Assembly: GCA_965262715.1 (NCBI GenBank)
Contig: OZ253553.1
Span: 2,080,001-2,144,000, forward strand
Length of the DNA stretch: 64,000 nucleotides
Source: Bdellovibrionales bacterium
Lineage (GTDB): Bacteria > Bdellovibrionota > Bdellovibrionia > Bdellovibrionales > JAUICD01
Direction: 5' to 3'
This document shows, piece after piece, positions 42,001 through 45,000 of the stretch. Position 1 is the stretch's first letter. Every line of letters starts with the position of its first letter. Made by a program: the position numbers.

Positions 42001-45000
42001 AGGTAAGCCAATCCTAACTTTTGTTGCAGATCTTTTAACAAATTGATAATCTGAGCTTGAATAGAAACATCTAAAGCAGATACCGGCTCATCACAAATAA
42101 TAAATTCTGGATCAACAGCTAAAGCTCTTGCAATACCTACCCTTTGCCTTTGTCCTCCAGAAAGTTCATGAGGATAACGAGAAATTATATTTGATTGCAA
42201 GCCCACTGTTTGTATAAGCTCTTGCACTCGATCCTGATGATCTTTTTTAGAGGTATAAAGCTTATGGATAATAAGAGGTTCTGAAATAATCTGGCCTATC
42301 TTCATTTTAGGATTTAAACTAGAATAAGGATCTTGAAAAATAACTTGCATTTTTCTTCTAATAGTTTTTAAGTCCTTAATATTGGTAATATCTTCCCCTC
42401 GATAATAGATTTTTCCCTTTGTACAATCTAAAAGCCTCAAAATACACCGACCTAAAGTAGACTTTCCACAACCTGACTCCCCCACTAAACCTAATGTTTC
42501 ACCTGCTTTGATATTAAAAGAAACCCCTAAGACAGCTTTTACACTTTCAATTTTTCTTGAAAGAACTCCAGATTTAATAGGAAAATATTTGTGCAAATTC
42601 TCAACCTTAATAAGAGGTGCTTTCATTTTACATCACCTATTGGAAAAAAACAGGCTGCTTTATGCTCCCTTCTTTCAAAAGCCATAAGAAGAGGTTTGCT
42701 TTCTAAACAAGTTTTTTGAACTAAGTGACATCTATCTTGAAAACGACAACCTACTGGTAAGTTTTCAAAACTAGGAACTATACCAGGAATAGTTGTGAGC
42801 TTCTGATAACTCTGAGATGACTGCAGTGGAGGTATAGAATCCAATAATCCTTTTGTATAAGGATGCTTAGGATGAATAAATATCTCTCTCACATTCGCAT
42901 ACTCAATAAACTGACCTGCATACATTACAGCCACTTCATCACACATTTTCGAAACTACACCTAAATCATGAGTGATAAGGATCAGAGACATTCCTAGCTT
43001 ATCTTGAAGTTCTTTGATGAGCCTTAATATCTGAGCTTGAATTGTCACATCAAGAGCTGTTGTCGGTTCATCTGCAATCAAAACATCAGGATCACAACTA
43101 AGAGCCATCGCAATCATCACTCTTTGCCTCATGCCTCCTGATAACTGATGAGGATATTGCTTCATACGCCTTTTGGCCTCAGAAATACCTACAAGATTTA
43201 ACATCTCAACAACTTTATTATGGACATCTTTTGTGCTCATATTAGCATGATGTGATAATACCGCCTCTGCAATTTGATCCCCAACTGTAAAAACAGGATT
43301 TAATGAATTCATAGGTTCTTGAAAAATCATAGAAATGACATTCCCACGGAAAGCTCGCATTTGCTTTTCTGTTAACTTCAAAAAGTCTTTACCCTTAAAA
43401 AGAACCTCTCCATTTAAAATTCTACCAGAAGAAGATAGTAGCCTCATAATAGAAAGAGCTGTAATTGACTTTCCACAACCTGACTCTCCTACAATACCAA
43501 CACTCTTACCTGCATCTAAAGAAAAGCTTACATTATCTACAATTGTTGTGAGGTGATTTCCCCTAACAAAACCTACCTTTAAGTTTTTAACAGTCAATAT
43601 AGGCATATCTCTTTCCATAACAATCATCCTTCTTTCTGTATCAAAGAAAATAGGAATTGCATAACCAGAATTTTTTAACACCCTTGGATATTTTTATTTT
43701 AAGATGGAATAAGGCTCATGGTCTATTTATAAAAGACTAGAAAAATAATGCAAAACTGATGGGCTTGACCAATTTGCTGTTGAAGCCACTTTTCTAATTA
43801 ACTTATGTTCCTGATTTAGAATATAACTTTCAGGCAACTTCCAAGTACCCCATTTTTTTGCTAGCCCCTGCCCTAAGTCATGCAAAACAACAACATTAGG
43901 AGTGGATACTTCAAAAGCTTTTATAAAATTGATAATATCCTTTTTATTATCATCCATAGAAATAGCTAAAATTTTCACTTGACCTTGAAACTCATCAACA
44001 AGTTCCAACATAGATCCAAATTCTTCCACACAAGGAGCACACCAAGTTGCCCAAAAATTTACAATTGTGATATCTCCTCTAAATTCAGATAAAGACACTA
44101 AACGATCATCTGTCACACTGGGAAGTGTAAAATCTGACGCACCAAACTGTTCTAATCGAGATAAGACATCTTGACTATCATTTGGAATGTTTTCCTCTTG
44201 ACAAGAGCGGACAATAAATAAAGCTGCCACAATCAGAGCTATCAAAATAAGACCTATAAACCAATAACGTTTGACTTTTTCTAATAAGCCAGTATGAGCA
44301 GGCTTTGAAGGTGCTTGCTTAGAAATAGATACATCTTCTTTAACTTCTACTTCCTTAGCTTCTTTTATTGTTTTAACCTCAGTCTTTTTGGCATCTATTG
44401 GTTTTTTAGATACATCATCCACTTTCTTTGTCTTCTTATCCAAATCTTTTTTCTGATCTCGTGTCAAAATTAAATCTGGTTCTACCCATTCAATAAAAGC
44501 CATAGAAGCATTATCTCCAACACGCTCAGCACATTTGACAATACGAGTGTAACCTCCACTACGATCAAGAAACTTAGGCGCTAATCTATTTACAACATCT
44601 GATATTAATGCTTTATCAGGATATTTGGATAAAAGCCGCCGGTAAGAATTCAGATCTTTTCTCTTACCTAAGGTGATCACCCGGTCAGCATGCCTTTTCA
44701 ACTCCTTAGCTTTAGCTAAAGTTGTTTTAATACGTCCATACTTTATCAAAGAAAAAACTAGATTCTTTAATACAGCCTTTTTTTGATTATAACTGTGACC
44801 AAAACTTTTGCGGCCTACTAAAACTCTATGTCTCATTTTATTTATCTCGTTACTTTACTGATTTTGCCTGTCTATATCTCATAACTTAACTAGGGGTTTG
44901 ATTTGGATCTTGGCCCTGCCCCTGGCCCTGCCCCTGGCCCTGGCCACCATCATGTCCTTGTTGATTTTGATTAATGTCATCATAGTTATAATGACTGAAT

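Follow-up and report, generated by a model that had tools for sequence, protein, structure and literature searches.

A sole bL17 gene fused to a membrane helix and a thioredoxin-like domain in an SRP-less genus of Bdellovibrionales

The attachment of ribosomes to a membrane is best described in mitochondria, where passages in PMC8321541 give mL45/Mba1, together with the Oxa1 C-terminal tail, Mdm38/LETM1 and Mrx15, as the tethers. Parts of PMC7844537 and PMC8330425 reflect the view that SRP is usually called universal. An SRP-independent insertion route through the YidC2 tail is described for Streptococcus mutans in a section of PMC8546722, and co-translational targeting of RodZ by SecA in a section of PMC5674894. 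On the side of the ribosome, bL17 is counted among the proteins surrounding the tunnel exit in passages of bioRxiv 10.1101/312850 and PMC4508901, which agrees with the position beside the exit tunnel assumed for L17 in the preliminary description of this locus, and PMC4508901 in part also reports cross-links of MetAP to bL17.

We analyzed the L17 gene of a Bdellovibrionales genome of 2.94 Mb in one contig (G000) within a set of 61 genomes in total, in which the compared genomes are numbered from G001. Positions are counted in a window, which is the whole stretch of 64,000 nt that was analyzed. A whole-genome profile search found one L17 locus in G000, with an open frame of 375 aa. As shown in Table 1, this frame holds a single 369-aa ORF with a membrane anchor and a thioredoxin domain behind L17, so the earlier claim that the sole rplQ is fused to these two parts stands. 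We show that G000 can make L17, or the anchored thioredoxin, only as a single 369-residue chain.

Table 1. Features of the fused gene and its surroundings (positions in the window).
Feature	Position	Strand	Basis or remark
Whole fused ORF: bL17, linker, TM helix, thioredoxin-like domain	43727..44836	-	ATG start; 369 codons plus stop; sole L17 gene of the genome
bL17 domain, residues 1-119, predicted cytoplasmic	44480..44836	-	PF01196 and TIGR00059
Lys/Glu-rich linker, residues 120-190, predicted disordered	44267..44479	-	pLDDT and alignment of homologues
Single TM helix, residues 191-209	44210..44266	-	Kyte-Doolittle; AF2; signal anchor of relatives
Predicted periplasmic part, residues 210-369: juxtamembrane stretch and ResA/TlpA-like thioredoxin fold	43730..44209	-	Pfam, pLDDT, structure matches
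Active-site CxxC (C266-A-P-C269)	44030..44041	-	DNA TGT GCT CCT TGT; alignment columns
rpoA, directly upstream of the fused rplQ	44886..46067	-	End of the alpha operon rpsM-rpsK-rpsD-rpoA-rplQ
secY	50475..51776	-	PF00344, 2.1e-114; Sec translocon present though SRP is absent

The C-terminal half was assigned to the thioredoxin fold by several methods. In the Pfam search of the fused protein, AhpC-TSA matched residues 233-346 (3.9e-18), Redoxin 235-347 and Thioredoxin_8 254-345, and PF00578, PF08534 and PF13905 scored 66, 47.7 and 44 bits, respectively, where the cut-offs are 26, 26.6 and 27. AF2 modelled this part with a pLDDT of 76-91, and its best solved relatives were 3kcm (4.2e-22) and ResA of B. 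subtilis (1st9, 2.5e-16). The segment N-F-W-A-T-W-C-x-P-C was invariant, with WCxPC present in 14 of 14 aligned sequences, while E272 aligned with E80 of ResA and P335 with its Pro. The cut-offs of the named subfamilies were missed, with 76.7 against 170 for ResA (NF002854), 56.6 against 123.15 for DsbE (TIGR00385) and 46 against 230 for TlpA (NF047696). G000 also encodes DsbD (DsbD_TM 5.9e-58, 596-aa frame) and a CcsBA-like cytochrome c synthase (Cytochrom_C_asm 6.4e-32, 566-aa frame), which show presence only, and eight members of the family besides the fused thioredoxin, so that cytochrome c maturation is one candidate role of this domain. Among these nine, the fused thioredoxin half had the most ribosomal-protein-like codon usage, at the 98.6th percentile of 1263 long ORFs compared to the 3.9th-78.5th for the others. 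This is a weak hint only, and the reference genes were drawn from the same chromosomal region.

The best Kyte-Doolittle 19-mer of the fused protein began at residue 191 with a score of 2.87; the 40 residues leading up to it contained 10 K/R, against 3 on its other side, and the AF2 helix spanned residues 185-211. In the relatives' separate thioredoxins, this helix has its match in the N-terminal signal anchor, which shares the hydrophobic segment K-G-(F/L)-L. Across the alignment, 13 of the 14 sequences had a helix score of 2.39-3.14 and 9-14 K/R before against 1-5 after it. The charge bias that had been taken to place L17 in the cytoplasm and the thioredoxin domain in the periplasm was thus found again, and it supports a predicted N-in/C-out topology.

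To compare the locus with its relatives, L17 open frames were collected in all 61 genomes. The frame measured 385 aa in G001, 262 and 272 aa in G003 and G004, and 149-206 aa in all 57 remaining genomes. In the relatives, the anchored thioredoxin has a gene of its own immediately behind rplQ. Reading the loci of SRP-bearing relatives directly gave the same adjacent, separate L17 and TM-thioredoxin genes as reported before. All SRP-bearing relatives with a readable L17 (28 of 28) had a basic tail of 32-81 aa. In G003 and G004, which form an SRP-less sister genus, L17 had a polybasic tail of 141-152 aa, and only 1-5 nt separate its end from the start of the thioredoxin gene.

The absence of SRP was then examined. 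G000 gave no match to PF00448, PF02978 or RF00169, and tblastn with Ffh and FtsY of G002 reached a best E of 0.043. By the same three profile tests, the SRP54-type GTPase domain, the Ffh M domain and the SRP RNA were all absent from G001, G003 and G004, while G002 and G007 had all three parts (Ffh, FtsY and 4.5S RNA). The controls for these searches matched 14/14, 14/14 and 12/14 genomes, and the SRP54 domain was found in 57 of the 61 genomes. The four SRP-less genomes measure 1.6-2.9 Mb, three of them in a single contig, and keep SecYEG-type export; the searches also showed SecY, SecA, YidC and trigger factor to be present. We confirmed that the fusion is limited to an SRP-less genus, since G000 and G001 are fused and lack SRP and the SRP-bearing relatives are unfused, and also that G003 and G004 are SRP-less yet unfused. 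Because the two SRP-less genera are sisters in the tree, SRP loss would most simply be a single earlier event and the fusion a later step in one genus; being later, the fusion cannot have been a precondition of that loss. A stepwise history is suggested by the polybasic tail that L17 carries in the unfused genus. The association between fusion and SRP loss rests on one evolutionary event.

Other possible substitutes for SRP were also considered. An Oxa1/YidC2-like tail was rejected, as the C-terminal tails of YidC were short and alike in 13 of 13 genomes, SRP-less or not. Remodelled proteins of the exit site were rejected as well: uL23 frames measured 93-113 aa in 11 of 11 genomes and uL29 frames 63-85 aa in 10 of 11 (162 aa in G005), with no difference in the SRP-less genomes. 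For uL24, the model PF17136 gave a match in no more than 2 of 11 genomes and was hence uninformative.

We propose that a stop-loss would have joined rplQ to its order-wide follower, a putative signal-anchored periplasmic ResA/TlpA-like thiol-disulfide reductase, and that the product was fixed in one genus. The L17 part would be synthesized first and remain cytoplasmic, while the internal helix would act as a type II signal anchor inserted via SecYEG, probably with SecA, as in RodZ. The thioredoxin domain would be exported, with DsbD and the cytochrome c synthase as its candidate partners, and the L17 part would join 50S subunits while still attached. With its roughly 70 flexible residues departing from the exit-tunnel face, the linker would then keep the 50S subunit within about 10-25 nm of the inner membrane. 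In a lineage that had already lost Ffh, FtsY and 4.5S RNA, this permanent closeness to the membrane would free co-translational insertion from targeting. On the sequence evidence, constitutive membrane tethering of large subunits is nearly evenly balanced in our judgment, tipping slightly towards doubt. Its full form is tentative and somewhat more doubtful: every 50S subunit would be covalently anchored via bL17, the whole proteome would be made on tethered ribosomes, the tether would replace SRP, as a free-standing bacterial counterpart to the mitochondrial step, and the polybasic tail of the sister genus would represent an earlier form of this solution that acts by electrostatics. In favor of tethering, the first stop-loss mutant must have been viable with no L17 other than the anchored one. 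Several considerations count against an intact tether. The long disordered linker would be an easy target for proteases, and the fusion would yield a periplasmic reductase at the abundance of a ribosomal protein, with no obvious use. Moreover, tethering all 50S subunits would cap the ribosome number by membrane area and force the end of 50S assembly to take place at the membrane, for which we know of no bacterial precedent.

In the most serious alternative, the fusion is real and L17 is freed after synthesis, by proteolysis of the linker or by intramembrane cleavage of the anchor. The ribosomes would then be free, and a near-neutral stop-loss would have been fixed by drift in a lineage of small population size. 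This is well possible, although we incline against it. The L17 and thioredoxin genes abut in relatives, with gaps of 1 nt in G003, 5 nt in G004, 3 nt in G023 and 0 nt in the metagenomic locus L053, and therefore a single mutation is enough for a fusion. Disorder is predicted for the linker, with a pLDDT below 50 for residues 138-188 in the AF2 model; the SRP-less sister genus lives unfused; and the genomes of the clade are also rearranged and reduced (1.6-2.9 Mb), with a broken ribosomal superoperon. All this would suit a cleaved precursor. On the other hand, no processing site in the linker was conserved in both subclades, as only E119, L122, K135 and P179 were at least 90% conserved in the alignment. 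The linker measured 65-78 aa in 10 of the 11 full-length fused proteins and, counted on the alignment, about 54 aa in P0010; a spacer that only had to be cut would not need such a conserved length. The residues directly after the helix read R-S-C in the alignment, which we take to be no canonical signal-peptidase or lipobox motif, and a cut on that side would leave L17 anchored anyway. Finally, if tethering were harmful, the first mutant could have survived only with a cleavage already in place.

The two halves might also be uncoupled during translation, with internal initiation giving an anchored thioredoxin, termination or frameshifting in the linker giving free L17, and the full-length chain in the minority. 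We consider this unlikely. The linker DNA is A-rich, with one A6 run at codon 129 and another at codon 144, and both other frames contain stops throughout the linker, as such a reading would expect. In G001, codon 175 is an in-frame GTG preceded by AAGG, which could yield a separate anchored thioredoxin in that genome. A Shine-Dalgarno-like 4-mer preceded 7 of 14 neighboring genes and was missing before the fused gene's own start, and with such patchy use initiation may need none; because only half of the neighbors carry one, the lack of a Shine-Dalgarno sequence is weak evidence against internal starts. The start codons and the reading frame speak against two products. From codon 140 to the helix, G000 has no in-frame ATG, GTG or TTG, the next being TTG at 198 and GTG at 203 inside the helix, and no Met or other start-capable residue of the linker was conserved across the 11 full-length proteins. 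No in-frame slippery heptamer of the type X XXY YYZ occurred in the G000 linker, and the one of G001, at codon 194, has no counterpart in G000; programmed frameshifting was dropped for want of a conserved heptamer. An internal promoter was dropped likewise, with 5 promoter-like sites seen against 5.6 expected by chance. Although the linker sequences vary and carry in-frame indels, all 11 full-length members keep the frame. The internal start for the thioredoxin part that had been raised as a possible objection was thus checked, and no conserved internal start or slippery site uncouples the halves.

It is very unlikely that the L17-like part has retired from the ribosome and become the RNA-binding cytoplasmic domain of a membrane redox protein, leaving a ribosome without L17. 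The nearest to an indication is the PF01196 score of G000 in the genome comparison, 112.4 bits, which belongs to the lower scores in the set of 61 and is no direct support. This score is far above the cut-off and inside the range of the relatives (98-134 bits), and PF01196 detected L17 in 61 of 61 genomes. In the fused protein itself, Ribosomal_L17 (PF01196) matched residues 23-118 (2e-31, 109.1 bits against a cut-off of 27), and the NCBIfam L17 equivalog TIGR00059 was passed at residues 13-119 with 111.7 bits against 70.05. The AF2 model of this part had the secondary structure pattern of L17, at a pLDDT of only 33-49. In addition, the core motifs GGYTRI and GDNA.MA.IE were nearly invariant among the fused proteins, and the single-copy gene still follows rpoA at the close of its operon, with rpoA, rpsD, rpsK and rpsM upstream on the same strand.

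The protein search recovered ten further full-length fusions with 54-85% identity (P0002-P0007 and P0009-P0012), in agreement with the number and identities given in the preliminary description. No unfused close relative was found: among the shorter proteins, none with L17 only exceeded 58% identity and none with thioredoxin only exceeded 44%. Among 1.84 billion protein representatives, one spanned both domains. A Logan contig of 12.5 kb was identical over the whole stretch and probably derives from the source sample. Another study's Logan contig of 391 nt bridges L17 and thioredoxin with in-frame changes only (123 nt shortened to 114, plus 3 inserted). The JGI metagenomes yielded three loci, the best of which (L053) encodes an L17 of 166 aa and, directly adjoining it, a thioredoxin of 437 aa in an ORF of its own, and the GTDB genome contigs yielded two loci with L17 only. 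P0027, on a contig of 4.8 kb, appears frameshifted past its CxxC and is unreliable; it was rejected as an independent second fusion, being unaligned and seemingly out of frame past CKPC, with an odd acidic stretch before an internal 'MPERKG...' that resembles a native thioredoxin start. P0008 and P0013 look like truncated gene calls. Such products are what an assembly or sequencing artefact uniting two genes would leave, but the fused frame can hardly be one, given 11 distinct full-length fusions from different assemblies and sources on contigs of up to 2.94 Mb, a frame open in both G000 and G001, the two Logan contigs, and a junction at which no former start codon remains. It is near certain that the rplQ-thioredoxin fusion is genuine and fixed and that its partner is the ancestral downstream neighbor.

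These results describe four genomes that lack all three SRP parts and, in one of their two genera, a sole L17 that is a predicted integral membrane protein. If it stays intact, it would be, to our knowledge, the first core bacterial ribosomal protein with a TM anchor. An intact fusion would also offer a natural experiment on the life of a cell with all its ribosomes membrane-bound, and an independent replay of the transition from SRP to tether inferred for mitochondria. If L17 is cleaved off, the locus would still clearly exemplify an essential ribosomal protein whose precursor is anchored in the membrane. In open-licence PMC and bioRxiv, no paper on an L17-thioredoxin fusion was relevant by title among the matches listed, and no naturally SRP-less bacterium of such a genome size was found.

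The fused protein resembles several known systems in part. With the bL17 proteins that carry basic tails (151-200 aa in the relatives, and the family NF051448, 'L17, sunset domain variant'), it shares a core followed by a Lys-rich, low-complexity extension. It differs in that its tail is a Lys/Glu polyampholyte running into a membrane helix, and its match to NF051448 over residues 12-167 reached 119.4 bits, below the cut-off of 280; a search of open-licence PMC and bioRxiv for the L17 'sunset domain' gave no relevant paper. Like ResA, TlpA and CcmG (DsbE), it has a helix followed by a thioredoxin fold with W-C-x-P-C and the ResA-like Glu and Pro, in a genome with DsbD and a synthase, whereas its anchor is internal, following 190 residues predicted to be cytoplasmic, and it falls below the cut-offs of the named subfamilies. 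The YidC2 and RodZ cases are comparable as bacterial membrane insertion without SRP, and RodZ, which combines an internal anchor with a large periplasmic domain, can use SecA. Unlike in the YidC2/Oxa1 solution, the YidC tails are short here and that solution is unused, while a role of SecA is suggested by its presence only.

The closest functional likeness, if the fusion is intact, would be to the mitochondrial tethers, as the fusion would likewise attach the large subunit constitutively to an energy-transducing membrane by the polypeptide exit without Ffh and FtsY. The likeness is functional only, since the fused protein has no Tim44-like homology with mL45/Mba1 and contains only the L17 and thioredoxin-fold Pfam families (E <= 0.001). 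Moreover, the mitochondrial tethers are added peripheral proteins or receptors, whereas the anchor of the fusion would be a covalent TM helix on bL17, a core and universal bacterial protein. And while mitoribosomes make almost only membrane proteins, the cell described here would have to produce all of its cytosolic proteins on tethered ribosomes as well.

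Ribosomal protein L17 is encoded in this genome (G000) only as the N-terminal part of a longer protein with an internal signal-anchor-like helix; after this helix comes a thioredoxin domain that is intact and has periplasmic homologues. In Pfam, the fused protein matched Ribosomal_L17 at residues 23-118 (2e-31) and AhpC-TSA at residues 233-346 (3.9e-18), and the C-terminal stretch was also matched by Redoxin, Thioredoxin_8, and Thioredoxin. In NCBIfam, the L17 equivalog TIGR00059 was passed with 111.7 bits (cut-off 70), and ResA, DsbE, StoA, and TlpA were the top C-terminal models, each under its own curated cut-off. 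Between the two domains come a stretch rich in Lys and Glu and a single segment of strong hydrophobicity (top Kyte-Doolittle 19-mer 2.87, starting at residue 191), with 10 K/R in the 40 residues before the helix vs. 3 in the 40 after it. An AlphaFold2 model with a 14-sequence alignment of fused proteins (A1) as input predicted the thioredoxin fold with confidence (pLDDT 76-91), placed a helix at residues 185-211, and left the linker disordered (pLDDT below 50 at residues 138-188). The L17 part had low confidence (pLDDT 33-49) and nonetheless the expected helix-then-strand pattern.

Coordinates of the fused gene, its surroundings and related loci
Feature	Sequence	Position	Strand	Description
Fused L17-thioredoxin gene	window	43727-44836	-	single ORF, 369 codons, ATG start
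RpoA	window	44886-46067	-	393 aa; C-terminal extension ending in (GQ)n repeat
RpoA of G001	L034	3669-5291	-	540 aa; extended C-terminus
211-aa ORF	window	41034-41669	+	no Pfam family; N-terminal CxxC...CxxC zinc-ribbon-like motif, hydrophobic C-terminus
302-aa ORF	window	48788-49693	+	no Pfam family; opposite strand, between adk and rpsM
SecY	window	50475-51776		retained
Break in ribosomal-protein superoperon	window; genome	55737-59126; 2,839,069-2,842,135		spc cluster begins at rplE
Lipoprotein-like ORF	window	56625-57233		202 aa; acidic, Pro-rich; ahead of rplE
Cys-rich ORF	window	57624-59126		500 aa; no Pfam family; ahead of rplE
Long-tailed L17 of G003	L032	2626-3408	-	tail end motif '...SIFG...KKS'
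Long-tailed L17 of G004	L033	2576-3391	-	tail end motif '...SIFG...KKS'
L17 and thioredoxin ORFs of a distant relative	L053 (JGI contig)	3001-4815	+	166-aa L17 stop abuts separate 437-aa ORF (anchor, thioredoxin domain, ~240-aa Lys/Glu-rich, coiled-coil-like C-terminal extension)

RpoA measured 337-354 aa in the relatives G002-G004 and G007. The adk-rpsM interval that holds the 302-aa ORF is the usual site of map, infA, and rpmJ. The genes of uL23 and uL29 lie about 715 kb away in G000 and at most 12 kb from rplQ in G002, G003, and G007. The 211-aa ORF is flanked by an apolipoprotein N-acyltransferase gene and by two Opp-type ABC ATPase genes, which come after the fused gene.

Each of 61 genomes (G000 and 60 relatives) carried one L17. 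The L17 open frame was 375 aa in G000, 385 aa in G001 of the same genus, 262 and 272 aa in G003 and G004 of the sister genus, and 149-206 aa in the other 57. The preliminary description had the two parts as separate neighbours in relatives with SRP. At 24 of 31 unfused loci, a homologue of the thioredoxin part followed L17 on its own strand at a distance of 1-887 nt; it lay on the opposite strand at two loci and was missing within the locus at five, two of them incomplete. The separate thioredoxin proteins open with a short basic stretch and a hydrophobic helix (e.g., 'MSPGLKGLLVAV...' in G002), and the helix of the fused protein aligns with this N-terminus ('TPKTKGLLIAF...' in G001), the start codon being gone. 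The fused gene is therefore rplQ joined to its ancestral neighbour. The gap between the two genes was 129 nt in G002 and 148 nt in G007, both SRP-bearing, 3 nt in the genome G023, and 0 nt at L053, the best hit in JGI/GTDB contigs; it was 1 nt in G003 and 5 nt in G004, which, as described earlier, lack SRP and yet keep separate L17 and thioredoxin genes. With gaps of 0-5 nt, one mutation could fuse both genes. A 461-aa database protein, P0064, combines RpoA domains (PF01000, PF01193) with L17 (PF01196); it represents either read-through or a further fusion where this same operon ends.

L17 was 151-200 aa long in the 28 SRP-bearing relatives read, with a basic tail of 32-81 aa after the core. 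In G003 and G004 it reached 260 and 271 aa with tails of 141 and 152 aa (56 K/R), which stop 1-5 nt ahead of the anchored-thioredoxin ATG and could be membrane- or rRNA-binding. In the fused proteins of G000 and G001 (369 and 378 aa) the tail continues into the helix. The linker spanned 65-78 residues in 10 of 11 full-length fused proteins and about 54 in P0010 (manual count on A1). No adaptation of YidC was found, its C-terminal tails being short in 13/13 genomes, and the lengths of uL23 and uL29 were ordinary in all 11 genomes examined. The uL24 C-terminal model PF17136 matched 2 of 11 genomes of the order vs. 10 of 14 controls, so either uL24 is divergent in this order or the model is insensitive.

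In E. coli, L17 is one of six proteins that surround the exit of the ribosomal tunnel (bioRxiv 10.1101/312850), MetAP cross-links to uL23 and bL17 (PMC4508901), and co-translational targeting by SecA is possible for an inner-membrane protein with an internal anchor (PMC5674894). The fused protein would insert N-in/C-out, its L17 part would join the 50S while still anchored, and the linker of about 70 residues (estimated contour about 25 nm, random-coil span below 10 nm) would hold the exit face of each large subunit near the membrane. We give such an intact tether slightly less than an even chance. One argument favours that it was at least tolerated: since the first stop-loss mutant lacked any second source of L17, the protein must have functioned in its anchored form unless its tail was by then being clipped. 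Release of L17 after synthesis is a serious if somewhat doubtful alternative. Against an intact tether it speaks that the disordered linker is protease-prone, that the sister genus is SRP-less yet unfused, and that ribosomal amounts of a periplasmic reductase are of no evident use. We also count against the tether that it would cap ribosome number by membrane area, for which we know of no bacterial precedent.

Separate synthesis of the halves as two translational products is unlikely. In G000, in-frame ATG/GTG/TTG codons past the L17 core occur at 124, 132, and 139, none from codon 140 to the helix, and then at 198 and 203 inside it. Codon 175 of G001 is an in-frame GTG, with AAGG five bases ahead of it; G000 lacks an equivalent, and the fused family shows neither a conserved Met nor a conserved Val at this position. 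The G000 linker contains no in-frame X XXY YYZ heptamer, and the single one of G001 is not shared; promoter-like sites within the fused gene were at chance (5 found vs. 5.6 expected). Motif scoring cannot settle internal initiation, because Shine-Dalgarno-like words precede only 7 of 14 nearby genes and none lies at the fused gene's own start. Eleven genes of the window, coding for ribosomal proteins, RpoA, and S1, served as the reference for codon usage. Among 1263 long ORFs, the thioredoxin part ranked at the 98.6th percentile (94.6th when set against random windows of 145 codons). The L17 part ranked at the 90.8th, and the other eight AhpC-TSA family members of G000 at the 3.9th-78.5th. Such usage is consistent with a thioredoxin half translated as fast as ribosomal proteins, but is a weak hint, as the reference set consists of nearby genes and the fused partner has itself been part of this operon for a long time.

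Among solved structures, the C-terminal part is closest in sequence to a thioredoxin-family protein of Geobacter (3kcm, 4.2e-22) and to ResA of B. subtilis (1st9, 2.5e-16). E272 aligns with the ResA Glu after CxxC and P335 with the Pro of 'LPTTF', which we take to be Glu80 and the cis-proline. The domain is assigned to the TlpA-like/redoxin superfamily, outside every curated subfamily. G000 also encodes full-length DsbD, a cytochrome c synthase resembling CcsBA, and eight further members of the family, and the thioredoxin gene keeps a constant place behind rplQ across the order. The domain may plausibly act like ResA, with apocytochrome c or an assembly factor for a copper centre as the substrate that it reduces.

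A non-ribosomal role of the L17 domain is very improbable. The earlier claim of a sole L17 stands: exactly one L17-family match, with an open frame of 375 codons, was found in G000, which is a single contig of 2,939,090 bases with a marker completeness of 92.7%. The ten further full-length fused proteins claimed before (P0002-P0007, P0009-P0012; 54-85% identical) were likewise recovered, from ENA, Logan, and NCBI sources and on contigs of up to 2.58 Mb. In A1 the L17 core and the N-F-W-A-T-W-C-x-P-C block are conserved, and the linker varies in sequence and indels with the frame never broken. A 12.5 kb Logan contig is identical across the whole stretch, but is probably from the sample that gave the window; a 391-nt contig of a different study connects the two parts, with 114 nt in place of 123 nt of linker and 3 additional nt elsewhere, both in frame. 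An assembly or sequencing artefact can hardly be maintained. Three further database entries are weak: P0008 begins at M112, P0013 is cut at both ends, and P0027, whose alignment ends right after CKPC and in which an odd acidic stretch precedes a native-looking thioredoxin-gene start, is read as a probable frameshifted assembly. In a HMMER search of 1.84 billion cluster representatives, P0009 was the single end-to-end match among the best 150 listed, the others covering the L17 or the thioredoxin part alone. The top L17-only match was 58% identical and the top thioredoxin-only match 44% (proteins of 30-201 residues), and therefore no unfused close relative is on record. No additional fused locus was found in JGI metagenome or GTDB genome contigs.

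In G000, neither the SRP54 GTPase domain (35 candidates scored) nor the Ffh M domain was matched, while both were in 14/14 control genomes; bacterial SRP RNA was matched in 12/14 controls and not in G000. Ffh and FtsY of G002, from the same family, gave a best tblastn E of 0.043 in G000. Among 61 genomes, the SRP54 domain (Ffh/FtsY/FlhF type) was missing in exactly four, G000, G001, G003, and G004; the M domain and SRP RNA were likewise not found in the latter three and were present in G002 and G007. These four genomes, 1.6-2.9 Mb in size and belonging to two sister genera, lack all three components, an absence that deserves its own study, whatever the fusion does. SecA, YidC, and trigger factor are retained in G000. 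A maximum-likelihood tree of RpoA, S11, L17 core, YidC, and S4 (1325 columns, 6 genomes, outgroup G007) was (G002,((G000,G001),(G003,G004))), with support of 100/98 for the SRP-less clade. The simplest history would be one SRP loss in the common ancestor and a later fusion in one daughter genus, though six taxa with a single long branch to the outgroup make this a thin basis.

Open-licence PMC papers and bioRxiv yielded no report of an L17-thioredoxin fusion, of a membrane-anchored ribosomal protein, or of a naturally SRP-less bacterium of comparable genome size. Ordinary parts are combined here in an unusual way: in a clade without SRP, the sole copy of an essential ribosomal protein is made as a predicted integral membrane protein. 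We class the fused L17 as a putative ribosome-membrane tether. Mitochondria mostly lack Ffh and FtsY, and the Oxa1 tail, Mba1/mL45, Mdm38, and Mrx15 hold their ribosomes stably at the inner membrane (PMC8321541).
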